This document shows, piece after piece, positions 46,608 to 64,000 of a DNA stretch of 64,000 nt; the first letter of the stretch is position 1, and each line of letters starts with the position of its first letter. The notes under the pieces are model-generated. The model searched no databases and was not told the DNA's origin. It saw only the letters and a program-made list of their open reading frames with translations. The DNA lies in assembly GCA_963727455.1 (NCBI GenBank), contig CAVSGG010000008.1:320001-384000 (forward strand), read 5' to 3'. The DNA is from Candidatus Krumholzibacteriota bacterium. Its GTDB lineage: Bacteria > Krumholzibacteriota > Krumholzibacteriia > JAJRXK01. A program made the translations under genes and the position numbers.

Positions 46608-46622
46608 TCCAGGAGGAAATCG

Positions 46623-47762
46623 ATGACAGCCTACATCCTCGATGCGGTTCGTTCGCCAATGGGGCGCGCACACAAGGGCAAGCTGGCGACCGTTCGTCCC
46701 GACGATTTGGCAGCGCAGCTGGTCCAGGCTCTTCTCGCGCGTCACGAGAATCTGGAACCCGCCACCATCGACGATCTGATCGGCGCCACCGCCATGCCCG
46801 AGGCCGAACAGGGAATGAACCTGGGACGCATCGTGGCCCAGCGCGCGCAGCTTCCCGACAGCGTGCCCGGAATGACCTTAAACCGATTTTGTGCCTCGAG
46901 CCTGGAGGCCATCGCGCTTGCGGTCGCGAAAATTCAGAGCGAGATGGCTGATGTAGTCGTGGCCTTTGGTGTGGAGAGCATGAGCCGAATCCCCATGGGC
47001 GGTTTGAAGCTGTCCCCCAATCCCTGGCTGGCCGAACACAGGCCCGGCAACTACCTGGGGATGGGATTGACGGCGGAAAACCTGGTGAAGCGTTACTCGA
47101 TTACCCGCGAGGACCAGGATGCCTTCGCATTGAAGAGCCATCAGCGAACCATCGCCAGCGAGAAAAAGAGATTGTGGGAGGACGAGCGCATTCCGTACGA
47201 GCAAGAGGGAGAAATCGTCTTGGACCACGACGAGTGTCCCCGCGCGGAGACGAGTCTGGAGCTCCTCGGCAGCCTCAAACCTTCCTTTGCCCTGAACGGC
47301 ACGGTGACGGCCGGCAACAGCAGCCCATTGACCGATGGCGCGAGCGCGGTGCTGGTGGTCAGTGAGAAAATTCTGAAGGAGCTCGGCGAAGAGCCCCTGG
47401 GCCGTCTGGTGAGCTATGCGGTGGCCGGTGTCGACCCCGAGATCATGGGGATCGCGCCGGTTACTGCGGTGCCCAAGGCTCTGGCGAAGGCGGGCTGGAA
47501 ACTGTCAGAGATCGAGCGAGTAGAACTGAACGAGGCCTTCGCCGCCCAGTCCCTGGCCGTGATCCGCGAATTGGGTTTGGACCCCGAACTCACCAATCCG
47601 CAGGGTGGAGCCATCGCGCTGGGACATCCTCTGGGGATGAGTGGCGCGCGGATTGCGGGGACTCTGCTGCACGCCATGAAGCGTTCCGGCGAGCGCAAGG
47701 GACTCGCCACTCTCTGTATCGGAGGCGGCATGGGGGCCGCCGCCGCCTTCGAGCGCGCATGA
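46623..47762 (+). CDS. fadA: 3-ketoacyl-CoA thiolase
   Basis: NRFCASS, NEAFAAQ, GHPLG, CIGGGMG. Confidence 0.9.
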
Positions 47763-47788
47763 ATCGCGCCTGCATTGGAGATGTGACC

Positions 47789-49567
47789 ATGAATCAGAAG
47801 ACCTTACGACGCGGCGGGAGCTTCCTGATCGAGCTTACCCCGTTTCAGGAGATTCAAACCCCCGAAGACTTCAGCCAGGAAACTCAACTCCTGGCGCAGA
47901 CCTGCCGCGACTTCGTAAAGCAAGAGGTTCTGCCGGTGATGGAGCGGCTGGAAGCCCAAGAGGAAGGTCTCATGCCCGCCCTGCTGAAGAAGGCGGGCGA
48001 AATCGGCCTCTTGGCGGTCGACGTTCCCGAGGCCTTCGGCGGACTCAGCGCGCCCAAGACCCAGAGCATGGTGGTGGCGGAGTCCATTGCCGCGGGCGGA
48101 AGTTTTCCGGTAGCACACGGCGCGCAAACCGGCATCGGCACTCTGCCCATCGTTTATTTTGGAACAGCGGAGCAGAAGCAGGAGTGGTTGCCCAAATTGG
48201 CCACTGGGGAACTCATCACCGCCTACGCTCTCACCGAAGCCGGCAGCGGAAGCGATGCACTGGCCGCAAAGAGCACGGCCGTCCTGGACGGTGAGGAATG
48301 GGTGCTCAACGGTGAGAAGATGTACATCACCAATGGTAGCTTCGCCGACGTGGTGATCGTCTTCGCCAAAGTGGACGGCGAGCATTTCTCGGCTTTCATC
48401 GTGCCCATGGACACCCCGGGTGTTAGCCCCGGTGCCGAAGAACACAAGATGGGCATCAAGGGCAGCTCCACGACGAGCATCGTGATGCAGGACGCCCGCA
48501 TTCCCAAGGCCAACCTCCTTGGTGAGGTGGGTAAGGGACACATCATCGCCTTCAACATCCTCAACGTCGGACGGTTCAAGTTGGGCGCCGCAGTGACGGG
48601 AGCGGCGAAAGAAGCAATCGAAAAGACCATCGCCTACGTGAGCGAGCGCAAACAATTCAACAAGACTCTCAGCGAGTTCCCGCTCACGCAGAACAAATTG
48701 GGAACGATGGCGGCGCGGATTTTCGCCGCGGAGAGCGCGGTCTATCGTACCGCAGGATATTTCGACGAAGCGATCAGTGCGCTGGACAAGACTCACGCGG
48801 ATTACGACCGAGAAGTCATCGGCGCCATCGACGATTACTCCATCGAGTGCAGCATCATCAAAGTCTTCGCATCGGAGGTCCTGGACTACGTGGTGGACGA
48901 GATGGTGCAGCTCTACGGAGGCTACGGCTTCGTGGAGGACTACCCCGCCGCGCGCTATTACCGTGACTCCCGCATCAATCGCATCTTCGAGGGCACGAAC
49001 GAGATCAACCGCATGCTGATTCCCGGGATGATTCTCAAGCGGGCGATGAAGGGCGAGCTTCCGCTCTTGGCGGCGGCCAAGGGCATTCAGGACGAGTTGC
49101 TTTCCATTCCGTCGCTCGGCGAGGAGGGTGAGAGGGAAGCCTTCGCGGCCGAGCTCGAGCAGGTCGCCAAGCTCAAGAAGGCCGTTCTGCTCGTGGCGGG
49201 AGTCGCCACACAGAAGCTAGGAACCAAACTGCAGGAAGAGCAGGAAGTTCTCGTGCACGCCGCCGACATGATCATGGAAACCTACGCGCTGGAGAGCGCG
49301 GTGCTGCGTGCGCAGAAGATGCTGGCTGCGGGCAAGAAGATTCCGGCGGTGCAGGCCATGATCACCGTTCTGGTCGCTGAAGCCGTCGAGCGCGTGGGAC
49401 GCGCAGGCCGTACCGCACTGACCCACGTCACCGAGGGTGATGAACTGGGCATGATGCTGGTGGGCCTCAAGCGATTCACGAAAGTGCCGCAGGTCGACAC
49501 CATTGCCGCGGCACGCGTGGCCGCCCAAGCCCTCCTGGAGCATGGAAGCTACCGGGTGCCGGCCTAG
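47789..49567 (+). CDS. fadE: Acyl-CoA dehydrogenase
   Basis: [38 protein letters not shown]. Confidence 0.9.
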
Positions 49568-49709
49568 AGTCGAAAGAGAGCCCGGTGCCGTCCGCTGTCT
49601 CCGTCGTCCTTCCCGCCTCCCATTGAAGAAGGACGATGAAGACAGCCCCCGACGAAACCGGGCTCGCCGCGTTCTTCTTGCAGGCTGGATGCCAAGCGGG
49701 AAGCATCGC

Positions 49710-49753
49710 AAAAAAGCAGCTCCAAGCCCCCTTCAGACAAGAGCTTGGAGCTG
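49710..49753 (-). terminator. Intrinsic terminator after the C25 peptidase gene
   Basis: CAGCTCCAAGC (49717-49727) pairs with GCTTGGAGCTG (49743-49753); T6 tract on the minus strand. Confidence 0.65.
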
Positions 49754-49835
49754 AACCCTCCACCGGTCTTCGCGCTCCACTCGCCGCCCCCCGCTGTCCG
49801 GCGTTCGACGGCCCGGACAGCGGGGCAGCGACTCC

Positions 49836-52244
49836 TCAACGCACCTTGACCACGCGCGTGCTGATCTGACGACCTTCGGTGAGCAGTTTGACGAAGTAGA
49901 CTCCGCTGGACACGCTGCTTCCGTGATCGTCGCGGCCGTTCCAGCCGATGTGATCCTCGCCGGGACCCACCTGCAGCGCGCGCACCTGGCGGCCGCGGGC
50001 ATCGAAGATCCGCAGGCGGCCACCCTGGTCCAACCTGCGGTTCAACTGGAACACGGTGCGCTGGGCCATCACCGAGGGAGTGGCGCGCAGGAGCAGCTTG
50101 CTGGTCTGCAGCGAGGGCGCGGGCGTACCGGCGATCACGGGGACCGATCCCACGAAGACGTTGCCGTCCAGATCGCGAACCACAACTTCCATCTCTCCCT
50201 CCGTGCTGGGAGTGACCGAGAGGCTGGCCGCTCCTCCTGCGTCGGTGTAGGTGTTGGTGAAGACCTCGTCGCCGCTGGCGAGCTTGCCGTTGTTGGCGCG
50301 CTTCCAGACCGAGACCAGCGCCTCTTTCACCGCCAAGCCTTCGGGATCGTAAACCTCGACGGTCAGGCCACAGCCATCGGGACAGACCTGGAGCGCCTCG
50401 GGCATGATCACCGTCCAGTCCAGGGCGCCCAGACGCTTGATCTTCATCTCCGGATCGCCCAGCAGCATGTACATCCAGGCGTTGTCACCGTCATAAGCGC
50501 TGGTCATCTGGTTCTCTGCAGCGGAGATTGCCTGCGCATGTCCGGTGATGCCATCTTCGAAGACGGCCTTGAAGAGACCGCGATCCAGTTCGTGGTTGGG
50601 AGTCGTGTAGCTGGGCACGGTGGCTCCATAGTGCGCGACCGCACCGTCGTTGGTCTCCTCCATCCAGTTTTCACCGACGCAGTCCGCCACCCGGATGTCG
50701 TTGTTGTTACATGCGATGGACCAAACCACTGGTGTGCGCGGAGCGTTCGCCAGGACGCTGATGTCGGAAGAGCCGAAGCTTTCGAAACTGGTGTTCCAAC
50801 CGGTCCATGCGCCAGTGCTGCCGTGTCCGCGATAGCAGATGAGCCCCGCTCCGTTGTCGATCAGGTCCCTCACGTCGCTATTCGTCGTTCCGGCACTGCC
50901 GTAGAGAGTGACGAAATTCGGCGTCACGGAGTAGCTCGCGGTGCGCACGGACTCCTGGGCGCCCTCATATTTGTTGGGCGCGTTCTCCTTGTGCGCGGCC
51001 AATCCCACCGTGGTATAGGGCCAGGTGAAATCGCGGCCGTTCTCGTAGTTGAGGATCTTCGCCACCTGGTTGCTGAGGTCGTCCGCGTTATCCACCGACA
51101 GGCGTCCTACCCAGACCTCCTCGTTCAAGTCGTCGCCGTTCATGGAACCGTAAAGATCGTCGGTGGGAACCACTCCTGCGTTGTTGGTTTGGGGGGAGGG
51201 GCACAACGGAATGAACGTATCATCTCCCACGAGCAACACATAGTGGTCGTAGAGAGGTGACGAGCTTTGATACCAATGCTCGATGGCATCGCGAATTTCG
51301 CTGCAAGTAGTGCCCACCGATTCCAGGGTCAACTCGGTCACTTGGAAGCCGCGGGACTTCTTTTGATCGATCAGCGGTTGGATCTGCGGCTGCAGGTATT
51401 CGCGATATAGGAAGAGGAAGCGACCTTCGTAGTATTCTCCATTGCTGAGGAAAAATTCCCGCGCCACTTTCCAGTTGTCATAGATGGTCGCGGCCAGGTG
51501 CGCCTCCTCGATCGTTCCTTGCCCGAATGAGAGTAATGCCCCCTGATGTCCGAGCAGCAACCGCATCTGGTCATAGACCTGAAGTTCGCCGGTCGCGGGA
51601 TCCCACTTGCATGGCCAGGCCTCGAACTGAGCAGTGGGAATCCAGCGGTCGGCGGCTTCGACGGGCCGGCCCCGCGGTCCGAAATCGGTGGGCCAGGGTC
51701 CGCTGCTCGCATAGAGCTGCTCGTCGATCTGGAAAATCTCAGGGTCCCCCTCGGGATGATCGCGCTCGGGAATGGGTTGCGGGTAGATCTGCATGTTCGA
51801 GAAGCTGCGCGTGTTGAGGATCTCCACGCGATCCAGGGTGACACCCTCGGCGCTGGTGGGTACGGCCAGACACATCTGGACCGCGGGCAGAAGCGGAGCA
51901 CCGGTTTGACCCATGATGCCCAGGCCGGGAAAGCTCAGGCGCTGGTAGCTGTGTTGATCGGCGCCCAGGACATCTTCCATCCAGAAACCGTGGATGACCA
52001 CGTCGATCACGGTCTGTTGGTCGTCTGATCCGGAGACGAGTTTGACCTCGGCCGCAGTCCCCTCCGGAGTGTGGTCCAGGTGCACCCATTCCTGGGCCCG
52101 GGCATCGCCGGCAAGGGGACCTGCGCCAATGGTCAAGAGAAAGACCAGCCAGAGCAGGGAAAGCGCCGGGAGCTTCGCTTTGGGGGATCGAACTGAGGGC
52201 TCAGGGAAGGCTCTGCCCTGAAAGTGCGGATCGGGCAAGCGCAT
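49836..52244 (-). CDS. C25 (gingipain-like) cysteine peptidase with propeptide and FlgD-Ig C-terminus
   Basis: GAPLLP propeptide motif, YVLLVGD, VGRLS, YRGHG (His), SIAC (Cys), LLGDP, WNGRDDHG..VSSGVY. Confidence 0.88.
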   Translation of the reverse strand: MRLPDPHFQGRAFPEPSVRSPKAKLPALSLLWLVFLLTIGAGPLAGDARAQEWVHLDHTPEGTAAEVKLVSGSDDQQTVIDVVIHGFWMEDVLGADQHSYQRLSFPGLGIMGQTGAPLLPAVQMCLAVPTSAEGVTLDRVEILNTRSFSNMQIYPQPIPERDHPEGDPEIFQIDEQLYASSGPWPTDFGPRGRPVEAADRWIPTAQFEAWPCKWDPATGELQVYDQMRLLLGHQGALLSFGQGTIEEAHLAATIYDNWKVAREFFLSNGEYYEGRFLFLYREYLQPQIQPLIDQKKSRGFQVTELTLESVGTTCSEIRDAIEHWYQSSSPLYDHYVLLVGDDTFIPLCPSPQTNNAGVVPTDDLYGSMNGDDLNEEVWVGRLSVDNADDLSNQVAKILNYENGRDFTWPYTTVGLAAHKENAPNKYEGAQESVRTASYSVTPNFVTLYGSAGTTNSDVRDLIDNGAGLICYRGHGSTGAWTGWNTSFESFGSSDISVLANAPRTPVVWSIACNNNDIRVADCVGENWMEETNDGAVAHYGATVPSYTTPNHELDRGLFKAVFEDGITGHAQAISAAENQMTSAYDGDNAWMYMLLGDPEMKIKRLGALDWTVIMPEALQVCPDGCGLTVEVYDPEGLAVKEALVSVWKRANNGKLASGDEVFTNTYTDAGGAASLSVTPSTEGEMEVVVRDLDGNVFVGSVPVIAGTPAPSLQTSKLLLRATPSVMAQRTVFQLNRRLDQGGRLRIFDARGRQVRALQVGPGEDHIGWNGRDDHGSSVSSGVYFVKLLTEGRQISTRVVKVR

Positions 52245-52455
52245 GGAGTGCCTCCTTCGGCAGACGCCGTGGCGGGACGGATTGACAGGGATTGTCAGCT
52301 ATCGAGCAAGGGCGAGTTCCGCGGCGGACGCGTTCCCCGTCCCCCACGAGCTCATCGGTTCTTGGTTTGCTCTCATCCTTAGCAACGAAAATCCGGCGCC
52401 GAAGCGGACACACATTCGTTGACGAGAAGTGGGTGGATGAAGACGATGTGGAGGG

Positions 52456-53013
52456 GTGCCACTCGTGACGAGAGAAATCCAGATCGCCCTGCTGCGCGGC
52501 ATCAACGTCGGCGGACACAACAAGTTGCCCATGCGCGAGCTGCGCTCGCTGTGCGAGGAGTTGGGCTGGCAAGATGTCCGATCCTACATCCAGAGCGGAA
52601 ATCTGGTGTTTCGATCCTCCTCCCCACGATCCCTCTTGGAGCAGACGCTCGAGAAGGCCATCGAGGAACACTTCGGCTATTCGATCAGTGTCCTGGTTCG
52701 ATCGGCGAGGGCCTGGTCGGGTCTTCTGAGGAGCAATCCCTTTCCAAAGGAGTCCGAAATGGGGCCCAATCACGTGATGCTCCTGCTCTCCAAGATAGCT
52801 CCCGAAAGGAACGCGGTGCGCGAGCTGACTCCCTACGCGAACAACGGAGAGTGTCTGCGGCGGATAAAAAGCGCGTTGTGGATCCACTACCCGAACGGCG
52901 CCGGAACTTCGAAATTGACCCCTTCCGTCCTGGCCCGCTGCATGGGCTCGCCGGTGACCGCTCGCAACTGGCGCACCGCACTCAAACTGGAGGAAATGGC
53001 GCGATCGTCCTAG
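52456..53013 (+). CDS. DUF1697 family protein
   Basis: LLRGINVGG, YIQSGN, TARNWRT. Confidence 0.88.
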   Translation: MPLVTREIQIALLRGINVGGHNKLPMRELRSLCEELGWQDVRSYIQSGNLVFRSSSPRSLLEQTLEKAIEEHFGYSISVLVRSARAWSGLLRSNPFPKESEMGPNHVMLLLSKIAPERNAVRELTPYANNGECLRRIKSALWIHYPNGAGTSKLTPSVLARCMGSPVTARNWRTALKLEEMARSS

Positions 53014-53050
53014 ACTCCCGCTTGGCTTCCCCGCTCTCGAGGAGAACTTC

Positions 53051-54082
53051 GTGAGAAGACTTTCCGCATTGACTGCCACCCTCGTCGCGTTGCTCTGCGC
53101 CGCCAGCGCGAGTCAGGCTGCTCCCTCCCTGAAAGAGTACTTCGACAACTCGGGGCGAAACGACGTGATCGGCGGCGGCGTCCGCATGATTCCCGTCAGT
53201 ACGCCCAAGGGAGAGTTTCAGGTCTGGACCAAACGGACCGGCAACAACCCCACGATCAAAGTGCTCTTGCTGCACGGCGGACCGGGGATGACCCACGAGT
53301 ATCTCGAGGCCTTCGACAGCTATTTCCCGGGCGCGGGAATCGAGTACTACTACTACGACCAGCTGGGCTCCTTCTTCAGCGATCAGCCGGACGATCCCGA
53401 TCTCTGGACCATTCCGCGTTTCGTCGAGGAAGTCGAGCAGGTCCGGCAGGCTCTCGGTCTGAACAAAGACAACTTCTATCTCTACGGTCACTCCTGGGGC
53501 GGGATCCTGGCCCTGGAGTACGCCCTGAAGTACCAGCAACATCTGAAGGGACTGATCATCTCGAACATGATGGCCTCAGCTCCCGCCTACAACGACTACG
53601 CGCATAAGGTGCTGATGCCGCAGATGGACCAGGCTGCTCTGAAGAAAATCGAGCAGTTCGAGGCCGACGGGAAGACCGACGACCCGCAGTACATGGGACT
53701 TCTGATGCCCAATTGGTATACGGTGCACATTCTGCGCATGCCGGCAAACCAATGGCCGAACCCGGTGAACCGCGCAATCCAGTACCTCAACCCGAAGATC
53801 TACGTGCTGATGCAGGGACCAAGCGAGATGGGACTCTCGGGCAGACTCGCCAACTGGGACCGCACCGCCGATCTGCCCAAGCTCGAGGTGCCAACCCTGA
53901 CGATCGGATCGAAGTACGGCACCATGGATCCCGATCACATGAAGATGATGGCCCAGAAGGTGCAGAACGGGCGCTTTCTGCTCTGTCCCAACGGAAGCCA
54001 CTTGGCAATGTACGATGATCAGAAGATCTATATGAAGGGGCTTATCCAGTTCTTGAAGGACGTTGACGCCGGACGCTTCTAA
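53051..54082 (+). CDS. Secreted proline iminopeptidase-family hydrolase (S33)
   Basis: Signal peptide; HGGPG, YDQLG, GHSWGG, GSH. Confidence 0.9.
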   Translation: MRRLSALTATLVALLCAASASQAAPSLKEYFDNSGRNDVIGGGVRMIPVSTPKGEFQVWTKRTGNNPTIKVLLLHGGPGMTHEYLEAFDSYFPGAGIEYYYYDQLGSFFSDQPDDPDLWTIPRFVEEVEQVRQALGLNKDNFYLYGHSWGGILALEYALKYQQHLKGLIISNMMASAPAYNDYAHKVLMPQMDQAALKKIEQFEADGKTDDPQYMGLLMPNWYTVHILRMPANQWPNPVNRAIQYLNPKIYVLMQGPSEMGLSGRLANWDRTADLPKLEVPTLTIGSKYGTMDPDHMKMMAQKVQNGRFLLCPNGSHLAMYDDQKIYMKGLIQFLKDVDAGRF

Positions 54083-54160
54083 AGGGAGAGTGGATTCTGC
54101 AGCCTCGTTTTGTGGTGAGAAGACTGAACAGGGTGAGTCCTGGGCCAGGAGGATCTCCGG

Positions 54161-54853
54161 ATGAAATCGGTGCGAAGCCTGGCTCTCGCTTTCGGGATCT
54201 ACTTCGTTCTGTACCTGAGCTATCTGGCGTGGTGGCCTGAGAGCGAACTCCTCCACTGGCTCACGCTGGTCGCAATGCCACTCACCCTCTTGAGAATTTT
54301 GCTGCGCAGGCCCTCGGGATTGCCTTCTCTGCGCGAGGCCTTGCGAGCAGCTGGTTTCTCGGGCCGCCCAAGGGCGCGGGGGATCGTTGCGGCTTTGCTC
54401 GTTGGAGTCCTACTCAGTGGACTGCAATTGGCCGGACGGAACGCCAACGAGATTCAGGATCTGATCCTGTCACCTCGAGTTCTGTGGCTGTGGCCGCTGT
54501 CGTTTTTCATGATGCTCTTGACCGCTGCCACCACCGAGGAATTCTTCTTTCGGGGGATTCTGCTGAAGCGATGCAGTGCCGCGACCGGATCGAAATGGTT
54601 GAGTGTGGGAATCACCTCGATACTCTTCGCGCTCTATCATGTGCCCTACGCCTATCACCTTGCGGCGTGGGGCACGCAGTTCGACCTGAGCGGCGCACTG
54701 CGATCCGCATTCGAGACGGGTTTCCCACTGGGAATTCTCTTGGGAAGTGTCTTCGTCATTGCTGGCGAGAATACGCTTGCATCCATTCTCGCCCACGCGC
54801 TGATCAACTCCCTACCCGGGATGCTGATCGTTCAGAGCTTCTTCGGATCGTAG
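54161..54853 (+). CDS. CPBP/CAAX (Abi) intramembrane metalloprotease
   Basis: EEFFFRG, FALYH, HALIN. Confidence 0.88.
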   Translation: MKSVRSLALAFGIYFVLYLSYLAWWPESELLHWLTLVAMPLTLLRILLRRPSGLPSLREALRAAGFSGRPRARGIVAALLVGVLLSGLQLAGRNANEIQDLILSPRVLWLWPLSFFMMLLTAATTEEFFFRGILLKRCSAATGSKWLSVGITSILFALYHVPYAYHLAAWGTQFDLSGALRSAFETGFPLGILLGSVFVIAGENTLASILAHALINSLPGMLIVQSFFGS

Positions 54854-54891
54854 CCGCAAATGCTGGAAACCAGGAAGACGGAGGTCTAGCC

Positions 54892-55098
54892 GTGAAAACG
54901 AGGAACTATCTCCTGCAAGCTACTGTCACCGCCTGCGTAGCCTTCGTAGTCTCCGCAGCCGTAACGTATTTCTACCGCCTCATCGTGCACGGCCAAGCTG
55001 CGGTAAACTGGGAGACTGCGTTCGACTTGGCGATCGTACTGGGAGTTGTCCTGCCGCTGGTCAGCGCAAGAGGCTCAGCAGTTCGCCAAAAGAACTGA
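54892..55098 (+). CDS. Small two-TM membrane protein
   Basis: GGAGGT RBS, GTG start, two hydrophobic helices. Confidence 0.6.
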   Translation: MKTRNYLLQATVTACVAFVVSAAVTYFYRLIVHGQAAVNWETAFDLAIVLGVVLPLVSARGSAVRQKN

Positions 55099-55714
55099 GG
55101 AGAGCATGGGGCTTCGCCGCGCGGAGGTCTTCCACGCGCCCGATGCCATAGCTGAACGCGATGGAAATGCAGCCGAGCGCATGAGCCGCTTTGATGTCGT
55201 TCGGGGAGTCGCCGACCATCCAAGCCTCCTTCGCACCCACCTTCAGCTCGTCCAGTACCAGCTGCAAAAGATCAGGAGCCGGTTTCACGGGTACCCCCCG
55301 GCGCGCTCCTACGATCGCGTCGACGTAAGGCGCCAGCCCGACACCCTCGACCACCCGCGCCGTAAACTCGTCAGGCTTGTTGCTCGCCACTCCCATGCGC
55401 AGCCCGCGCGCGCGCAACACCGCCAGAGTCGACGCGACCTCTGGATACGCCTGCGTGTGATCCAGCAGATGTTGCGCGTAGAAATCACGGAAACGCAGGA
55501 GCGCCGTGTCGACTTCGGGGCCATCCTCGCCCAGCGCTCGAGCAACCAGCATTCGAGCTCCATCCCCGATGTAGCCGCGCACGGTTTCCTCGGGCAGGGG
55601 CGGCAGGCCGCGCTCTTGCAGCATCAGATTGCAGGCCACCGTGAGATCGGCGACCGAGTCGACGAGGGTCCCATCGAGATCGAAGCAGATCGCACGGGGT
55701 GGGCGGAAGTTCAT
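55061..55714 (-). CDS. HAD-IA hydrolase, phosphoglycolate phosphatase-like
   Basis: FDLDGTLVDS, SNK, KPAP, VGDSPND. Confidence 0.88.
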   Translation of the reverse strand: MNFRPPRAICFDLDGTLVDSVADLTVACNLMLQERGLPPLPEETVRGYIGDGARMLVARALGEDGPEVDTALLRFRDFYAQHLLDHTQAYPEVASTLAVLRARGLRMGVASNKPDEFTARVVEGVGLAPYVDAIVGARRGVPVKPAPDLLQLVLDELKVGAKEAWMVGDSPNDIKAAHALGCISIAFSYGIGRVEDLRAAKPHALLSSFGELLSLLR

Positions 55715-55821
55715 GCTGGGAATCCTACCTTCCAGTGTCGTCCTGCGCAAGAAAGGCGTAGCAGAGCCGAAAGCACGGTGCAAATGGCGCGAAATCTCCC
55801 TGCGATTCCCGCGAGCATGTC

Positions 55822-55851
55822 TTGAAAAGTCCCGGAATCAGGGGATATACT
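55822..55851 (+). promoter_or_regulatory. Sigma70-type promoter
   Basis: TTGAAA-18-TATACT. Confidence 0.6.
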
Positions 55852-55857
55852 CGGCGC

Positions 55858-56225
55858 AGCTCCTTCAACCGAGTGCACCCCTGAACGCCAATGCGTTGGC
55901 GATCTTGCTCGGTAGGAACTGGGGAAGCGATCTCGCCAACGGTGCCCTCGTCGAGGGCCGGTTCGACACCACCGACTGCGGGATCGTCGGCCGAGGGGTT
56001 GCGAGCACCGACATCTGCTCGACGTCCGGATGCCCATGCGATGCAGAGACCGGACCACGGATTCTGACTCGCATCCATCGTGGCCCCGCCACATTGGCTC
56101 CTTTGCTCTGCAACCGCTTTGACATGGCGACCCTTCGGCTTCCCCAGGAGTTTTCGACCCAAGGCCTCTTCCTTCTTGACGATCGCGCGGGCTCCCTCTA
56201 AGGAGAGGGAGCCCCGTTCGTTTCC
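55858..56225 (+). ncRNA. Candidate structured ncRNA or long cis-regulatory leader
   Basis: Nested long-range stems (CTGGGGAAGC/GCTTCCCCAG, TCGCCA/TGGCGA, GGTTGCGAGCA/TGCTCTGCAACC) between a promoter and a terminator hairpin. Confidence 0.5.
56189..56223 (+). terminator. Terminator-like hairpin before the SPOR gene
   Basis: Perfect 11-bp stem GGGCTCCCTCT-AAGG-AGAGGGAGCCC followed by CGTTCGTTT. Confidence 0.6.
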
Positions 56226-56244
56226 CTTCGGGAGGTTTTGCAAG

Positions 56245-56892
56245 ATGGCACGCGAAGACACTCCAGATCGCCGTCCCCTGCTCTACGGCATCGCAGCCCT
56301 TCTCATCTTGTGCGCCGCGCTCTTCCTCTTTTGGCCTCGGGGCCCCAAGAACGAGCTCAGCACGATGACCCTCACCCCGCCGAGCGCGGAGAACCAAGTC
56401 CAGGCCGGGCAGGTGAACCCCGAGGACTCAGCCACCACCACCGCCAAGGAAGCGATGAATTCCGAGGAGACACCCAGGGAGAGCCTCTCTGGGGAGCAAC
56501 AGGAGCCTCAGTCCACCACCCCGAAGCAGAGCTCGCCCGAACCGAGCTCTGCGAGCACGGTGACCCCGGCAAAGACCGTGAGTTCGAGTCCGGCGCCAGC
56601 GAGCCACGAGAAGGCCCCGCAGAAGCTCAGCAGCGGTCTGGTGCAGCCGACCTCCACGGGCCGCTATCTGCTCAATCTCGGCTCTTTCGGTAGCCATTCC
56701 AACGCCCAGCGGCGGGTGGACGAGCTGCGAGCGAACGGCGTGCCCGCCGACGTGGCCCAGGGGACCAAGCCTGACGGCAGCCCGATCTACCGGGTGCGCG
56801 TCGCATACTTCGAGGGACACAGCCTGGCCAAGGCCTACGGTGAAGACTTGAAACGACGCCTGGGTCTGGATTACTGGATCTCCGAGCGCTGA
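56245..56892 (+). CDS. SPOR domain protein (TM anchor, linker, SPOR)
   Basis: N-terminal TM, S/T/P-rich linker, YLLNLGSF...NA, YRVRV; GGAGG RBS. Confidence 0.85.
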
Positions 56893-57013
56893 GGCCCGAC
56901 ATAGCCCGGGTTTTCCAGTTCCGAAGGCGCCCTTTCGGCTCCCGCCGGTCCGCGATATACTGACCTTCGGACTTTCGATCTCCCTTTCGTTCAATTTTCG
57001 CCTGAGGTACGCC

Positions 57014-59161
57014 TTGCCGACGAAGCGGAATCCCAAACAAGCACCTTTCAAGAGCTTGGACCGCTCCGCCCTGCTCGCCGCCTACCGGACGATGGTCAGC
57101 GCGCGGGCGGTGGACGACGAGGAGATCAACCTCAAGCGAAAGAACCAGATCTTCTTCCAGATCTCCGGCGCCGGTCACGAGGCCGTCCTGGTGGCCGCCG
57201 GCATGGTTCTGCGGCCAGCCTATGACTACTTCCTTCCCTATTACCGCGACAGAGCTCTCTGTCTGCAGCTCGGCATGACCCCCTACGAGATGTTCTTGCA
57301 GGGCGTGGGCGCGCAGGACGATCCGAACAGCGGGGGGCGGCAGATGCCGGCTCACTGGGGTCACGCCGCCTTGAACATCGTGTCCAAGAGTTCCTGCACC
57401 GGCATGCAGACCCTGCACGCGGTGGGCGTCGCGGAGGCTGGGCGCTATCTCGAGAGCTTCGAGGAGGCGCGCGCCGGAGCAAGTGAATTCCACGTCGACG
57501 AAGTGGTCTACATGTCGGTGGGAGACGGCTCGATCAGCGAGGGAGAGTTCTGGGAAGGGCTCAATGGCGCCTGCAACCTGAAGCTCCCCGTTCTCATTCT
57601 CGTCGAAGACAACGGTTACGCCATCTCCACCCCCAACACGGTCCAGACGGCCGGGATCCCCGTGCACGAGCTGGTAGCCTCATATCCCAATCTCGGGGTG
57701 TGGAACGTGGATGGCACCGATTTCCGGGCCTCGTACGAGGTTCTCAAGGCGGCCGCCGCGCACTGTCGAGCGAGAAAAGGTCCCGCCCTCGTCCGCGCGA
57801 CGACGGTCCGCCCCTACTCTCATTCGATGAGTGACGATCAAAAACTCTACCGCAGCAAACAGGAACTCGAGGAAGAGGCGCGCTCGGATCCCCTGCACCG
57901 CATGCGCCGCGATCTCATCGAAAACGAAAGCGTGAAGGCGGAGGACTTGGATGCGTTGGAGGCGGAGTGCCGCGCCGATGTCAAGGAGGCCTCCCTCAGG
58001 GCACAGTCGGCACAAAAGCACTCTCCCAAAAACGCGTTGCTCTACCTCTACAGTGAGGAGCAGGATCCCGCCGGGCCAAAGTTCGATACTCCCGAGGACG
58101 CGAAGTCGGAGGGCGGCAACGGAACCGGCGGCGAAAAACCCATCTCCATGCTGGAGGCGATCAACCGCACCCTGCACGATGAAATGGCGCGCGATGCACG
58201 GATACTCGTGTTTGGTGAGGACGTGGCCGATGCTACCAAAGAAGAGGTCCTGAGCGAGTGCAAGGGCAAGGGCGGAGTGTTCAAGGCCACCGCCGGGCTC
58301 CAGCGTGCCTTCGGGCCCGAGCGCGTCTTCAACTCCCCGCTGGCCGAAGCCAGCATCGTCGGTCGCGCAGTGGGAATGGCCACGCGCGGACTCAAGCCAG
58401 TCGTCGAGATCCAGTTCCTCGACTATATCTGGCCCGCTTACATGCAAATCAAGAACGAGCTTTCCACCATGCGCTGGCGATCCTACAACAACTGGAAAGC
58501 CCCGGTTGTGGTACGCGTCGCGGCCGGAGGATACCTACAGGGCGGCGCGATGTATCACAGCCAGAGCGGGGTGAACCTCTTCGCCAGCATTCCCGGCCTC
58601 CGGGTGGTCATGCCCAGCGAGGCCCGCGATGCCGTCGGACTCCTTCGAACCGCAATTCGCTGCGACGATCCGGTGATCTTCCTCGAGCACAAGCACCTCT
58701 ACCGACAGCCCTATGGAAAGTCGCTCTACCCAGGATCGAATTTCATGATTCCCTTCGGGAAGGCGCGGCTGCACCAGGAAGGAAGCGAGGTCACCATCGT
58801 GACCTATGGCGCCCTCGTGCATCGCAGTGAGCTGGCCGCCAAGCAACTGCAGAAGGAGACTGGGCTGTCCGCGGAGATCCTGGATCTGCGTTCTTTGAGT
58901 CCCTGGGATCATGAGGCGGTAGCCGAGAGCGTACGCAAGACCAACCGCTGCGTGGTGGTCTACGAGGACCCCAAGAGCCTGGGTTATGGAGCCGAAATCG
59001 CGGCCTGGATCGCCGACGAACTTTTCGAATATCTCGATGCTCCGGTACGACGCGTCGCGGCGCTCGATACGCACATCGCGTACGAGACAGAAACGGAGAG
59101 GGCGACGCTTCCCCAAACCGAAGACGTCGCCCAGGCACTCCGCGAAATCGCGCGCTACTAG
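57014..59161 (+). CDS. Fused E1 alpha/beta 2-oxoacid dehydrogenase (probably branched-chain)
   Basis: [29 protein letters not shown] motif, [20 protein letters not shown]. Confidence 0.92.
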
Positions 59162-59203
59162 AGCCTCAATTCCGCGCCATATTGAGAACCATGCGCTGGC
59201 AAG

Positions 59204-60568
59204 CTAGGATTCGCCCACCTGGATGGTCGTCGTGTGCTCGCTCATCTTCACCGGCTTGGCTTCCTCATCAGGAATCCCCAGATAGTCCGCAACGGACTGC
59301 GGCACTCTCGCATACCACATCGTCGCGGTAACCCGCACCGGTCCGCTCGCGATCTGCTCGGGAATGATCCAGCGGAATGACTCGTTGACGGCTTTCAACG
59401 GAGCGAGACGGTAATCCGGACCGAATCCGGCCGTGTTCCACTGCGCAATCGTCATCCGGCCCTGAGGATCGAGATAGGGTAGGCGGAAGATACGGTCGCC
59501 CGCGGGCACCGGCGCGTCTCTGAGCAGTCCCACGAACTGGTCGAGGTCCTGGATGTCTCCGATGTCCTGGTAGGCCATCGCCTCGGCCGACGCCACCGTC
59601 CATTCCTCACCTTCGAATCCCTTCGGCTCGACAGCCAGATGGTAGATCTTGCCTGCCGCATCGACGGCCTGCACGTCGAGCCACACCATTCTCTCCTCGG
59701 CCGAACCTGAGGGAATCATGTGCGCAGCTTTGGCGTTCACAACGGTTGCGGTGAAACGCGTTTCGTCACCCACTTGCACCTGTGCCCGCAAAGGGTGAAT
59801 GCGAACTTCCACGGCTCCGGCGAGCTTGCCCAGGTCGTGCGCGCCATGGAAGAGATGTTGACGGACATCCGGATGGTCCATGCCACCGGCGTCGGGAGCG
59901 GAATTCCCGGCCGCGGGCGGCATGTGGCAATCCTGGCACACGATGCCGGCCTTGGCCTGGGGACTGTCCTTCCATTCGAGATGCGTGGCCTTCACCCACA
60001 GACCCCAGGGGTCCTTTTCGTTGTGGCAAGTGCCGCAGAACTCGGCGCTCATGAGAAATGGGTTGGCTTTTATCGCATGGACCGGGCTCTCCGTTCCCTC
60101 GCGCACGCCCTGTTTGGCCCCTCCCGGCTGCACGATGAAGTTGAAGTTGAACGGCACTTCACCCTGAAATCCCGTGATGGAATGACAGAGATCGCAGCTC
60201 ACTCCCTCGTTGGCGCGCGTTCCTTCCGCGGGACGGCCAGGAGGGATGTCACCGGCGAGAAACGCCAGGGGCGCATGACATCCATTGCACCCCGCCTTGA
60301 CTCCCGCCACCTTCGCGAACTTCTCCGCGTGTGGCAGCGCCAGCTTGAAGTATTCGATCTCGTCCCAATCGTGAGTGAAACTCTGTGACATCATGGACTG
60401 TTCATATTGGGGCACGATGTCCACGTGACAATCGAGACAGGTCTGGTTGGGCTCGAAATCGCCGTAGCTCCTCGTGCCCAGTGCAGCATCCCCCGCCGGC
60501 GCGTCGGCATGAGCAACCCATGGCAAGACGCAGAAGAGGGTGAAAAGAACGAACACGGTCGACTTCAT
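59204..60568 (-). CDS. Periplasmic pentaheme c-type cytochrome (c554-like) with C-terminal beta domain
   Basis: Signal peptide; CLDCH, CNGCH, CDLCH, CGTCH, CQDCH; AHMIPSG. Confidence 0.88.
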   Translation of the reverse strand: MKSTVFVLFTLFCVLPWVAHADAPAGDAALGTRSYGDFEPNQTCLDCHVDIVPQYEQSMMSQSFTHDWDEIEYFKLALPHAEKFAKVAGVKAGCNGCHAPLAFLAGDIPPGRPAEGTRANEGVSCDLCHSITGFQGEVPFNFNFIVQPGGAKQGVREGTESPVHAIKANPFLMSAEFCGTCHNEKDPWGLWVKATHLEWKDSPQAKAGIVCQDCHMPPAAGNSAPDAGGMDHPDVRQHLFHGAHDLGKLAGAVEVRIHPLRAQVQVGDETRFTATVVNAKAAHMIPSGSAEERMVWLDVQAVDAAGKIYHLAVEPKGFEGEEWTVASAEAMAYQDIGDIQDLDQFVGLLRDAPVPAGDRIFRLPYLDPQGRMTIAQWNTAGFGPDYRLAPLKAVNESFRWIIPEQIASGPVRVTATMWYARVPQSVADYLGIPDEEAKPVKMSEHTTTIQVGES

Positions 60569-60736
60569 GGGTTTCCTCCTTGGCACTTGGGATCCACGGG
60601 AACTGTCCCAAGGATAGAGCCTCTTGGCGCTCGATCCTAGTCAGCTTTGCACGACGAGACTTCGTCACCGCATTGTGCTAAGCTTGAGCGGGAAGAGGCT
60701 CCTGATTCAAGCTGCGAAAGCCAGAAAGGGGAGCGC

Positions 60737-61429
60737 ATGCGTTTACCCGCTGTATGCTCTGGAGTTTTCACGCCGATCCGAGTCCTTGCGCTCGCCTCGC
60801 TCTTGCTTCTCGGCGCGGCCTCCTCCGCCAATGCTCGTTTCTACTCCGGTTGGATCGGGCTCTTTCTCGATCCCGCCGGCACGGTCAGCTATGTAGATAG
60901 CGGGAACTCCGGCGATCACTCCGATTTGGTGGAGGTTCTGCCGGACGGCGGACTGCGCTACACGGTCTACGTTTTGGGCAAGGATCTCCCACGGGGCACT
61001 TCGGCCTACGAGTTCGCCCTCAAACCAGCCTACTGGGCTGGCGGGTACTGGAATTCGCCCCCACTACTCTCCCCGAGTTTTCCCGAAGCTGCCGAATACT
61101 GGGAATGGAGCTCGACGGGGATCGAGCCCTACACGACGCAGATCAACTATGCCGTGGAGCTGGGGGAGTGTCTGCCCGCCGAGGGACTCATCACCCTGGC
61201 GACCATCGAAGTCCAGTATAACTACCTCGATTCGTTTGTTCTGTTCGTCGAGCTCGCGGAAGCCCGCACCAACTCGACCGTTGTCTACGATTACGGCTAT
61301 CGACCCTGCGATGCGGCAGGGCCCTTCGTACGCCTTCCCTTGCCTCTCGGTCAGACGGAGGCGGGGGTGTACTTGCCCGATCCGGCCGCGGAACTTTCCT
61401 GGGGACAGATGAAGGCACAGTTTCGTTGA
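60737..61429 (+). CDS. Secreted protein with C-terminal SWGxxK motif
   Basis: Signal peptide (ASSANA), IGLFLDPAG, ends ELSWGQMKAQFR. Confidence 0.8.
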   Translation: MRLPAVCSGVFTPIRVLALASLLLLGAASSANARFYSGWIGLFLDPAGTVSYVDSGNSGDHSDLVEVLPDGGLRYTVYVLGKDLPRGTSAYEFALKPAYWAGGYWNSPPLLSPSFPEAAEYWEWSSTGIEPYTTQINYAVELGECLPAEGLITLATIEVQYNYLDSFVLFVELAEARTNSTVVYDYGYRPCDAAGPFVRLPLPLGQTEAGVYLPDPAAELSWGQMKAQFR

Positions 61430-61466
61430 GTAGCGTGCACCACGCGGCCCGCGAGTGAGGGCTACC

Positions 61467-61886
61467 CTACTGTGGCGAAGCTGCGCGCCGAGCGAAGAAG
61501 AAGTAGAGCGCCGCCCACACGAAGTCACCCGCCGAAAGAAGACAATAGGCCAGGGCTCCCTGGGGACGGTGCCAGAATACGATCCCCAAAATTCCCAAGG
61601 CTCCGGTTACCCGCATGGCAATGGAGAGATCGACCAACGGCGGACAGCGTTGTGCGGTCTCCGCCGCGGTCAGATAGACCAGGGGAAGTACGAGCAGGGG
61701 CAAAGTCGCCAAACGGAACAGAAAGGGTGAGCATGGCAGTGGATGGGAGAAGAGCGAGAAGAGCCAGGTGGGCATGGCCAAAAGCAAGATGAACCAGAGC
61801 CAGTCGTAGAGCGCACTCAAACGCAAGACGAAAATCAACGGACGCAGGGAGCTCACTGGGATTTTTGGTGATTCCATAGGTCTCAC
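61467..61886 (-). CDS. Four-TM hypothetical membrane protein
   Basis: Four hydrophobic segments; RBS upstream. Confidence 0.65.
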   Translation of the reverse strand: MRPMESPKIPVSSLRPLIFVLRLSALYDWLWFILLLAMPTWLFSLFSHPLPCSPFLFRLATLPLLVLPLVYLTAAETAQRCPPLVDLSIAMRVTGALGILGIVFWHRPQGALAYCLLSAGDFVWAALYFFFARRAASPQ

Positions 61887-61910
61887 TCTCCCTTCGTTTT
61901 CATTCGGCCG

Positions 61911-62624
61911 CTAGATCCCGAAGAGGGTCTCTACCGTTCCTCCCAACACGTCTTCGCTCAGAAGGGCCTCGGCCATTCCCACGTGGAGTCGAGACCCCAT
62001 GGTACGTCTCTGTGCGAGCAGGATGTCCAGGATCGACTGCGGGCCGCGACCGATGGGCATCTGGCTCGCGTAGGCCTCAATGGCGCGCGTGAGCGTCTCT
62101 TCATGTTCGGAGACATCCACGACAAAACTGGGAGGCACCGTTTCGGGTAGCATGTAGTAGAAGAGCCGCTTCACTTGGTGAGGTTCTCCCTGTGGCAGAG
62201 CCCTGCGCAGGCGCGCCAGCTTGCAGCCATCGCGAGCCAAGAGACCCGCGGCGAGATGATCCACGTTGGCCCTGCCGTCGAGGTGACTGGCTCGATTGTC
62301 GGGATAGGGCGCCAGAACGAGGGTGGGACGGAGCTCTCGCAGGAGCTGCGCGATGCGCACTCGACTCTCTCGGTCGTTTTCGACACCCGTGTCTTTGAAG
62401 TCGAGGATTCGGTGTTCACAGCCCAGGATCCGCGCCGCTTCCGCCGCCTCGCGCGCTCGCCCTTTGGGCGTTCCCCAGCTGCCTGCCTCTCCGGCGGTGA
62501 GGGCGACAATCATGACTCGGCGTCCCACCGCGCTCATGGCAGCCAGGATTCCACCAATCGCCATTTCCGCGTCGTCGGGATGTGCGCCAATCACCAGCGC
62601 ATCGAGAGAATGCTGCTTGGACAT
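61911..62624 (-). CDS. PIG-L family deacetylase, BshB1-like
   Basis: AHPDDAE, TAGEAG, R..EAAEAARILG, DH, YASQ. Confidence 0.82.
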   Translation of the reverse strand: MSKQHSLDALVIGAHPDDAEMAIGGILAAMSAVGRRVMIVALTAGEAGSWGTPKGRAREAAEAARILGCEHRILDFKDTGVENDRESRVRIAQLLRELRPTLVLAPYPDNRASHLDGRANVDHLAAGLLARDGCKLARLRRALPQGEPHQVKRLFYYMLPETVPPSFVVDVSEHEETLTRAIEAYASQMPIGRGPQSILDILLAQRRTMGSRLHVGMAEALLSEDVLGGTVETLFGI

Positions 62625-62793
62625 GTCGTGATGGTATCCACAGGCCCCCCATGGCACAAGCTCTTCCATCTTGAAACGTGGCCTCATGCCCTCAACGCAC
62701 CGAGACTTGCGCTTTGCCACGGCCCCGATAGACTAGGGGCCCGTTGGGACAGAAGAGAGTTCATTTCAAGGCACCCTAAAGGAGAGAATTCCC

Positions 62794-63816
62794 GTGAGAG
62801 TACTCGCGACCGTCTCGAGCTTCCTTCTCATGAGCGCGCTTTTGGGCAGTGGAGTCTCCAGGGCAGAGGACGAAGTGACCCCGGGACCTTGGCAATTCGA
62901 AATGCTTGCTGGTTTCAATCTCAACCAGAGCGCGTTTTCGAACAACTGGTCCGGTGGAGATCGTGGAGCTTTCGCCTGGAGCATCAAGTCCGACCTACGT
63001 GCGGAACGTCAATTCACGCAGTCCTTCAACTGGACGAACACCCTGAGCCTGGCCTACGGCGTCACTGCCAAACAGGTGGCCGACCCCGACAATCCAAAGA
63101 AGAAGGTCTGGGATCGCCCGGAGAAGAGCGACGATCAAATCCTCCTGGAATCGACGGCACGCTGGGGCAAGACCTCGCTCAACCCTTACCTCCAATTTCG
63201 CTTCGAGACACAGTTCTTGGACAAGAGCGATCCGCGCGGGGCTCTGAAATTCAATCCGCTGCGTTTCAACGAAGCGGCCGGGATCACCAAGGTGATTCAA
63301 AAGACCGAAAAGCGAGAGATCCTCACCCGGCTCGGATTCAGCGTGCGTGAGAACGTGGCCAAGACCTTTCAGGATCTGGCCGGTGATAGGACCTCGAGGA
63401 CCAGCACGATGGACGGTGGATTGGAATGGCAGAGCGTGGCAGGCTTTCCTTTTTCCAAGGAACGCTTCTCTTTGAACTCACGGCTGATTCTCTTCTTGCC
63501 CGTCTTCTATTCGGCCAAGAGTGATTTGAAAGACTTCGACCAGGACAGGATCGACGCCGGAATGCCAGGTGACGCCATAGCCGACTACTGGAAGCAAGCG
63601 AGCGCCGACTGGCAGAACACCCTCACTGCCAAAGTCACAGACCTCTTGTCGGTGAATCTGTTCTTTCAGCTCGTCTACGAAAAATTCGACACGAGCACCG
63701 ACCTGAGTCCCGACCTGCCGCTGGACGTGCGTGTGGCAAACGCCGACGTGGGTATCCGCAAGGCAGCGCAATGGAAGCAGACTCTGGCTCTGAGCTTGAA
63801 TTACCGCTTCTTCTAA
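62794..63816 (+). CDS. DUF3078-like outer-membrane beta-barrel protein
   Basis: Signal peptide; NQSAFSNNWSGG, LAYG, KSDD; ends LNYRFF. Confidence 0.78.
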   Translation: MRVLATVSSFLLMSALLGSGVSRAEDEVTPGPWQFEMLAGFNLNQSAFSNNWSGGDRGAFAWSIKSDLRAERQFTQSFNWTNTLSLAYGVTAKQVADPDNPKKKVWDRPEKSDDQILLESTARWGKTSLNPYLQFRFETQFLDKSDPRGALKFNPLRFNEAAGITKVIQKTEKREILTRLGFSVRENVAKTFQDLAGDRTSRTSTMDGGLEWQSVAGFPFSKERFSLNSRLILFLPVFYSAKSDLKDFDQDRIDAGMPGDAIADYWKQASADWQNTLTAKVTDLLSVNLFFQLVYEKFDTSTDLSPDLPLDVRVANADVGIRKAAQWKQTLALSLNYRFF

Positions 63817-63862
63817 GCCGCGGGCTTTGACGAACCTTCACCCTCTCAAGGGAAGTTTTGAC

Positions 63863-64000
63863 ATGGACAGCCAATCCGTACAGGGCCTCTACCTCACCAT
63901 CCAGGACCTTGCCGTTGCCTACGGTGGACGCATCCTCGGCGCCATCGCCATTCTGATCGTGGGTAGGATTGCCGCGGGGATCATCTCCAAGGCCGTTCAC
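63863..64000 (+). CDS. N-terminus of a probable MscS mechanosensitive channel (partial)
   Basis: MDSQSVQGLYLTIQDLAVAYGGRILGAIAILIVGRIAAGIISKAVH resembles MscS TM1; runs off the window. Confidence 0.6.
   Translation, partial: MDSQSVQGLYLTIQDLAVAYGGRILGAIAILIVGRIAAGIISKAVH

Follow-up and report, generated by a model that had tools for sequence, protein, structure and literature searches.

The window, by which we mean the whole 64,000-nt stretch of Candidatus Krumholzibacteriota DNA that was analysed, lies on contig C8 of genome G000 (completeness 88.85%, contamination 6.68%). The locus described here is a 530-nt intergenic gap, flanked on the left by a divergent gene for a HAD-family phosphatase (55061..55714, minus strand; Pfam HAD_2, E 2.1e-35) and on the right by a gene for a SPOR-domain membrane protein (56245..56892, plus strand; Pfam SPOR, E 4.6e-10). 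The start codon of the SPOR gene is the ATG at 56245, and its ribosome-binding site, GGGAGG, is located at 56230-56235. The HAD gene is the syntenic neighbour of the RNA in the related genome G004 too. The gene 3' of SPOR (57014-59161) encodes a fused E1 alpha-beta 2-oxoacid dehydrogenase component of 715 aa, in which the E1_dh, Transket_pyr and Transketolase_C domains are carried on a single chain; this gene is also syntenic in G004.

Transcription signals of the RNA

A consensus scan of the region located a single sigma-70-like promoter, TTGAAA-18-TATACT, at 55822..55851 on the plus strand (10/12 matches), compared with a mean of 0.1 sites in 50 shuffles. This is the promoter from which the initial annotation had started its proposed RNA, and its assignment is borne out by the homologues. 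Equivalent promoters were found in the matching relative place in G001 (10/12), G004 (TTGAAG-17-TATAAT, 10/12) and G002 (TTGAAC-17-TATACT, 9/12), and the element is also evident in the alignments of homologues. Transcription of the RNA would proceed from this promoter, and we infer a start at ~55858.

The 3' end of the RNA is less sharply defined. The folded part is followed by a tail (56148..56188, plus strand) that contains a U run (56151-56154) and a C/U tract (56165-56177) and represents a possible alternative 3' end in the sequence. Weak hints of an end in the tail are provided by a contig from RNA-library run X8, which reaches ~56173, and by a small terminator-like site at that position in G001. 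Further downstream a terminator scan identified an intrinsic-terminator-like element (56189..56224, plus strand), comprising an 11-bp hairpin at 56189-56214 with the loop AAGG and the tail CGTTCGTTTC; the 11-bp terminator stem of the initial annotation, ending 30 nt 5' of the SPOR ATG at 56245, is thus present. The scan returned this one site against a shuffle mean of 0.8, and in number it does not exceed chance. The hairpin is kept in both G000 contigs that carry the locus (C8 and C9), in G001 and in metagenome contig L048. In G002 it is shrunk to 5 bp and in G004 it is not formed in like manner; in neither of these two genomes did a simple scan of the RNA strand detect a terminator in the interval from the RNA to SPOR. 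The RNA may therefore end after the U run at 56151-56154, at the C/U tract (~56173) or at 56222.

Fold of the RNA and comparison with known families

The RNA is GC-rich, and the fold energy of the region on the plus strand corresponds to a z score of -4.13, with none of 100 shuffles as good, compared with -2.61 on the minus strand; the RNA core alone (55862-56152) gave -4.02. Single-sequence folds of the G004 and G002 homologues yielded z scores of -2.02 and -2.90, respectively, and the closing helix and both arms described below were recovered in each. A consensus fold, calculated with RNAalifold on a MAFFT alignment of five sequences, contains 83 pairs in 11 helices. Pairing is possible in 93.9% of the alignment cells of these pairs; shifting the 3' partners by 1-3 columns lowers this value to 35.8-47.7%. 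Both-sided changes occur in 11 of the 83 pairs, a number reached by 2/500 shuffles, and the covariation score of 0.237 (against 0.173) was reached by 0/500. A second, model-fitted alignment of six sequences, which leans towards structure, displayed both-sided changes in 12/84 pairs spread over five helices: the outer 5' helix (4/7), the inner 5' hairpin (3/6), the closing helix (2), the 14-bp helix (1) and the long inner hairpin (2). These compensatory changes support a multi-helix fold, covariation among homologues from related genomes being a check that the initial annotation had suggested; as they derive from only three independent lineages (effective sequence number 1.16), the covariation support is real but thin. 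Several positions keep G-U pairs, which would turn into A-C mismatches if the opposite strand were read, indicating that the plus strand is the RNA strand.

The 5' hairpin domain (55868..55913, plus strand) was seen in the alignments and consists of an outer helix, ACCGAGT/GCTCGGT (55868-55874/55907-55913), and an inner hairpin, CGCCAA/TTGGCG (55886-55891/55896-55901), between which the conserved CCCCTGAAC is unpaired. The initial annotation had described the same arrangement from the window alone. The loop of the inner hairpin varies in length in the RNA-library contigs, as expected of a variable loop.

The core domain (55919..56147, plus strand) is formed by a closing helix (55919-55925/56141-56147) over a three-way junction, and its layout, recovered in the alignments, is alike in independent single-sequence folds of the window, G004 and G002. 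Arm 1 (55927..55987) comprises the helices 55927-55936/55978-55987 and 55940-55943/55971-55974 and a hairpin at 55944-55949/55953-55958. The first of these helices, of 10 bp, is present in all sequences, and CAAC and GACAC are unpaired and invariant; the pairs of this arm are almost invariant, and covariation is thus little informative there. Arm 2 (55989..56140), found in both the alignments and the folds, is headed by a 14-bp helix (55989-56002/56127-56140) that displays a compensatory change from U-A to C-G, plus a change from U-G to C-G in G001. Inside this helix there is an inner junction from which a long hairpin (56038-56072, loop GACCA) and a short hairpin (56080-56092) extend. Confidence is lower for this inner part of arm 2, as two consensus predictions disagree and the single-sequence folds share only the two-hairpin inner junction. 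A pseudoknot scan between unpaired columns revealed nothing beyond an already known hairpin.

The core fold differs in part from that proposed initially, in which three nested long-range stems enclosed four hairpins; two of the three stems are superseded by better-supported helices. The outer stem (55919-55928/56138-56147) is an exact 10-bp match in the window, but only 7/10 of its pairs are kept in the homologues. The second stem (55933-55938/56125-56130) forms in the window but is disrupted in both G004 and G002, and the bases of its 5' half are part of the local 10-bp helix. The third (55997-56007/56104-56115) competes with the better-supported 14-bp helix, although a short version is possible in both lineages. 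Among the hairpins, GCCCTC/GAGGGC is present, CCGAC/GTCGG and TCCGG/CCGGA are not conserved, and CCACG/CGTGG competes with the conserved GTGGC/GCCAC (56080-56084/56088-56092).

The RNA does not belong to a family represented in Rfam 15, whose 4227 models include RNase P, 6S, tmRNA, SRP, OLE, GOLLD, ROOL, HEARO, raiA and riboswitches. At the gathering score there were 0 matches in the whole 64,000-nt window, and up to E 10 there was no family match at the window locus or in four homologous loci, consistent with the novel RNA of the initial annotation. SNORD100 scored 15.9 bits on the terminator hairpin in the search up to E 10 and was dismissed as a chance match, and one 20-bit match in the four homologous loci was unrelated. 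ARAGORN detected no tRNA or tmRNA in 55000-57000. It could be argued that the RNA belongs to a known family but has diverged too strongly for the Rfam models to recognise it, a view we consider extremely improbable. G000 yielded no RNase P RNA (RF00010), and this at first made that role possible. However, a standard copy (273-302 bits) is located elsewhere in 9/9 family relatives, including three that also carry the RNA described here (G001, G002 and G004), and the gap in G000 most likely reflects its incomplete assembly (88.85%). The 6S (60.2 bits), tmRNA and SRP RNAs were found elsewhere in G000, and the absence of an Rfam match up to E 10 extends across five homologous loci, further arguing against divergence from a known family.

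A protein-coding reading of the region was rejected. There is no conserved open frame, and the G004 sequence contains stops in all six frames. Gap runs between the window and G004 are 4, 1, 1, 3, 3, 1, 1, 2, 2 and 1 nt long (8/10 are not multiples of three), mismatches are distributed over the three codon positions as 29, 31 and 37, and reading frames overlapping the RNA had no Pfam match.

Distribution in genomes, metagenomes and RNA libraries

When the sequence 55822-56245 was used as a BLAST query against 41 related genomes, 4 matched including G000 itself. The G001 match extended over the full length at 89% identity, and those of G004 and G002 covered the core (window equivalent 55919-56101) at 75%. 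The order HAD/RNA/SPOR is common to 3/4 other species of the genus (G001, G004 and G002), and the same setting occurs in a second G000 contig and in metagenome contigs L048, L060 and L057. The fourth congeneric genome, G003, in which no RNA was found, is also without close SPOR and E1 homologues (best E1 25% identity), and its lack of the RNA is thus uninformative.

The second G000 contig, C9, bears a copy of the RNA with 94% identity (93.8% over the RNA), and no copies were found in G000 beyond the window and this colinear contig. The region of C9 from 99002 to 116249 (L105) is colinear with window positions 45882-64000, ~18 kb, with three blocks of 86-89% identity; two segments, corresponding to window 54079-55079 and 60665-61465, are replaced between C8 and C9. 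The G000 bin probably mixes two related populations rather than holding two paralogues, and 'two copies' of a feature in this genome therefore need not be paralogous. Between C8 and C9 the identity is 93.8% for the RNA, compared with 77.5% for HAD, 83.9% for SPOR and 87.6% for E1. Between the window lineage and the other lineage, the whole RNA is 66.8% identical and is not better conserved than the genes beside it (60.9-75.5%).

Five sequences were combined into a covariance model, which gave full-length matches in 4/10 family genomes and, when applied to 151 genomes of the phylum, detected full-length RNAs only in those four, representing 1/69 genera; no homologue was found in the other 68 sampled genera. 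Weak matches in 4/151 genomes (20.6-26.2 bits) are attributed to chance, as they comprise only 45-55 nt or skip >130 model positions. Exact-pattern scans, which miss diverged homologues, were extended to larger collections. In a species genome collection 24 loci were retrieved, 3 of which fit the RNA model and have the contig coordinates of G001, G002 and G004; the other 21 (from Streptomyces, Arthrobacter and others) fail it. Among metagenome contigs 37 loci were retrieved and 4 fit the model. L048 is full length (311 bits), L060 and L057 are cut by contig ends, and a 41-nt partial match at L058 (20.8 bits) was taken as chance; 33/37 loci had no match. The scan of viral contigs returned 3 loci with a best score of 7.6 bits, none of which is a match.

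Homologues were also present in RNA libraries. Twenty public runs share words with 55700-56900, and four of these, from three studies, are metatranscriptomes with one contig each. The contig from run X8 (304 nt) aligned to 55895-56154 at 95-99% identity and has unaligned ends that remain RNA-like out to ~56173. In runs X10 and X11 the contig (206 nt) aligned to 55873-56053 at 90-95% and terminates in a remnant of adapter next to ~55870, where the 5' helix has its foot; this weakly hints at a transcript end. The X15 contig (179 nt) aligned to 55940-56118 at 90-95%. The metatranscriptome contigs are confined to 55873-56154 and none is located on HAD or SPOR, although diverged flanks may fail to align, and uncovered parts of the 1201-nt stretch say nothing on transcription there. 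The contigs attest presence only, not strand, ends or level, and DNA carry-over is possible; we conclude that the RNA is probably expressed.

The distribution bears on the view that the locus contains no functional RNA at all, and is instead a decaying gene, the relic of a mobile element or a GC-rich spacer that is stable through its composition. Such an origin would fit the narrow range (1 of 69 sampled genera), the z score of only -2.0 in G004 and a GC content equal to that of the surroundings. A decaying gene or a spacer, however, would not be expected to keep its promoter in all lineages or to accumulate compensatory changes in five helices, and the region displays neither a conserved reading frame nor a Pfam match. 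Similarly, extra genome copies were not seen besides the colinear second contig, viral contigs gave no match, and homologues occur in RNA libraries. We consider a non-functional locus very improbable. These data show that the feature is a genuine conserved structured RNA, restricted to one genus of an uncultured phylum (to our knowledge Candidatus Krumholzibacteriota has no cultured member).

The SPOR promoter-like motif and the possible role of the RNA

In addition to the promoter of the RNA, the intergenic region contains a second promoter-like motif close to SPOR, TTGACG (56176-56181) followed after a 17-nt spacer by TAAGGA (56199-56204), spanning 56176..56204 on the plus strand. Each of 11 loci from 5 genera has a single copy of CTTGAC(G/T) upstream of SPOR, and in 10 of these, the exception being G007, it is followed by N17 and TA..... 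The -10 hexamers are TAAGGA (3 loci), TAAGCA (4), TAGACC (2) and TACATC (1). Loci L015, L016, L018, L019 and L020 are among those in which the motif is conserved; its -10 element is unusual in not ending in T. SPOR homologues were identified in 9/10 family genomes, and the motif is found in G005, G006, G008 and G009, which lack the RNA; in all, it extends to 4 genera without the RNA. As the motif is kept in genera that lack the RNA, it looks like SPOR's own promoter, and CTTGACG-N17-TA.... is probably just that, a putative assignment based on sequence conservation. The RNA gene, in turn, appears to have been added upstream of the SPOR promoter in one genus. In the window lineage the terminator hairpin overlaps the spacer and the -10 element of the SPOR motif. 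A SPOR transcript starting at ~56211 would be without the 5' arm of the hairpin and would consequently escape termination.

This arrangement is central to whether the RNA is a gene in its own right or the long structured 5' leader of the SPOR mRNA, acting as a riboswitch, a protein-responsive attenuator or a stabiliser, with transcription either stopping at 56189-56214 or reading on. The leader model draws on the position of the RNA, which is co-oriented with SPOR and directly upstream of it in every locus, and on the hairpin and U/C-rich tract just 5' of the ribosome-binding site. Indeed, a terminator detectable by the scan is absent between the RNA and SPOR in G004 and G002, where read-through is possible, and for this reason we treat a leader as unlikely rather than dismissing it. 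Set against this, SPOR has its own promoter motif, which is shared by the 4 genera without the RNA, and its homologues there are without such a leader: in five genomes, drawn from the four other genera of the family, nothing upstream of SPOR matched the RNA (best 10.8 bits). Only one lineage has a strong terminator. The pairing GCGATC/GATCGC, which had been suggested as an alternative to the fold beside the terminator, is absent from G004 and G002, and no conserved terminator with an exclusive alternative pairing, as expected of an attenuator, was found. Nor does the element recur upstream of related genes in different lineages; it is bound to a single gene in a single genus among the 151 genomes, unlike known riboswitch classes. 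The RNA-library contigs also end before SPOR. The initial annotation had offered two readings, a novel multi-junction non-coding RNA and an attenuator or riboswitch controlling a cell-wall gene. The first is supported by the lack of an Rfam match, the fold with its compensatory changes, the kept promoter and the homologues in RNA libraries; the second is the weaker half, given SPOR's own motif, a terminator hairpin that is strong in just one of the two lineages, a switch pairing that is not conserved and the extent of the library contigs.

The overlap between hairpin and promoter in the window lineage could also indicate that transcription from the strong upstream promoter across the SPOR promoter, ending inside it, lowers SPOR expression by occlusion, in which case transcription rather than the fold of the RNA would have the main effect. 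We regard this as improbable. The position of the terminator hairpin within the spacer and -10 element is as occlusion would have it, but the overlap is weak in G002 and absent in G004, and occlusion has no need for a conserved 230-nt fold, the helices of which are kept by compensatory changes.

With a promoter conserved among the homologues and a structure kept by compensatory changes in three lineages, the RNA displays two properties of a stand-alone non-coding RNA gene. We therefore favour, as the fairly probable explanation, a stand-alone gene for a stable, structured, trans-acting RNA of a new family found in one genus. Under this explanation transcription would begin at the RNA's own sigma-70-type promoter, and the transcript would fold into the 5' hairpin domain followed by the ~230-nt core, in which the closing helix would hold two long arms at the three-way junction, with several invariant internal loops. 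In the window lineage the RNA would end at the C/U tract near 56173 or at the hairpin 56189-56214, giving a length of ~300-365 nt. The hairpin would lie inside a separate SPOR promoter, such that SPOR transcripts would begin past its 5' arm. The RNA would most likely act in trans as a folded particle, binding protein or serving as a scaffold, rather than as a sensor for SPOR; its size, junction architecture and invariant loops suggest a protein-binding particle. We infer the transcript ends, the independence from SPOR and the trans-acting, protein-binding role, and no pointer to a partner protein or a target emerged from the analysis.

Large orphan structured non-coding RNAs of bacteria include OLE, GOLLD, ROOL, HEARO and raiA. 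Like these, the Krumholzibacteriota RNA probably stands alone in an intergenic region, is several hundred nucleotides long and has many helices, multi-way junctions and invariant internal loops; it shares with them a narrow taxonomic range, a function that is not evident from sequence and discovery through comparative and environmental data. It differs from them in matching none of their Rfam models and in being found in one genus only; its length of ~300 nt is below that of OLE, GOLLD and ROOL, and no associated protein gene was identified. With 6S RNA and abundant protein-binding regulatory RNAs it has in common a strong promoter of its own, and it seems stable and abundant enough to assemble from the RNA libraries of mixed communities. 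In contrast to the long bulged hairpin of 6S, however, its structure is a branched junction, and a regular 6S RNA is encoded elsewhere in G000. It resembles riboswitch and attenuator leaders in being a structured element co-oriented with, and 5' of, a gene, and in being followed, in the window lineage, by a terminator hairpin near the ribosome-binding site; it departs from them in that the downstream SPOR gene has its own promoter motif, in that neither the terminator nor the switch pairing is conserved, and in that the element is missing upstream of SPOR in other genera.

It is conceivable, if doubtful, that the RNA founds a new class of complex-folded RNA, a ribonucleoprotein scaffold or ribozyme of the rank of OLE, ROOL or raiA, specific to this candidate phylum and sufficiently abundant in wetland, salt-marsh and marine-sediment communities for assembly from metatranscriptomes. 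As a conserved and probably expressed molecule of 300 nt that combines a three-way junction with invariant loops, the RNA is of the kind that has yielded new RNA-protein machines or ribozymes, and its size suits chemical probing and cryo-EM. The narrow range, one genus and three lineages, limits both the evidence and its general reach. The literature we found contained nothing linking Krumholzibacteriota with non-coding RNA, there being no RNA-gene topic among the matches listed; for SPOR domains and riboswitches, the matches listed likewise revealed no link beyond chance co-mentions. The layout of the locus is instructive in itself, with the terminator of the upstream gene embedded in the probable promoter of the gene that follows.

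At the opposite end of the intergenic region, the HAD phosphatase gene looks leaderless: on the minus strand (55712-55750), TTGCGC (55750-55745) is followed after 17 nt by TAGGAT (55727-55722) and after a further 7 nt by the ATG at 55714. This layout was judged by eye and was not flagged by the consensus scan; the HAD gene of G004 has the same layout, TTGCGC-18-TACGAT-7-ATG. Between the divergent HAD and RNA promoters lies GAAAGCACGGTGCAAA (55769-55784), a sequence containing a GCAC-N-GTGC palindrome, which is kept in G000 contigs C8 and C9 and in G001, nearly so in G004, and is not alignable in G002. This sequence may be the binding site of a regulator.
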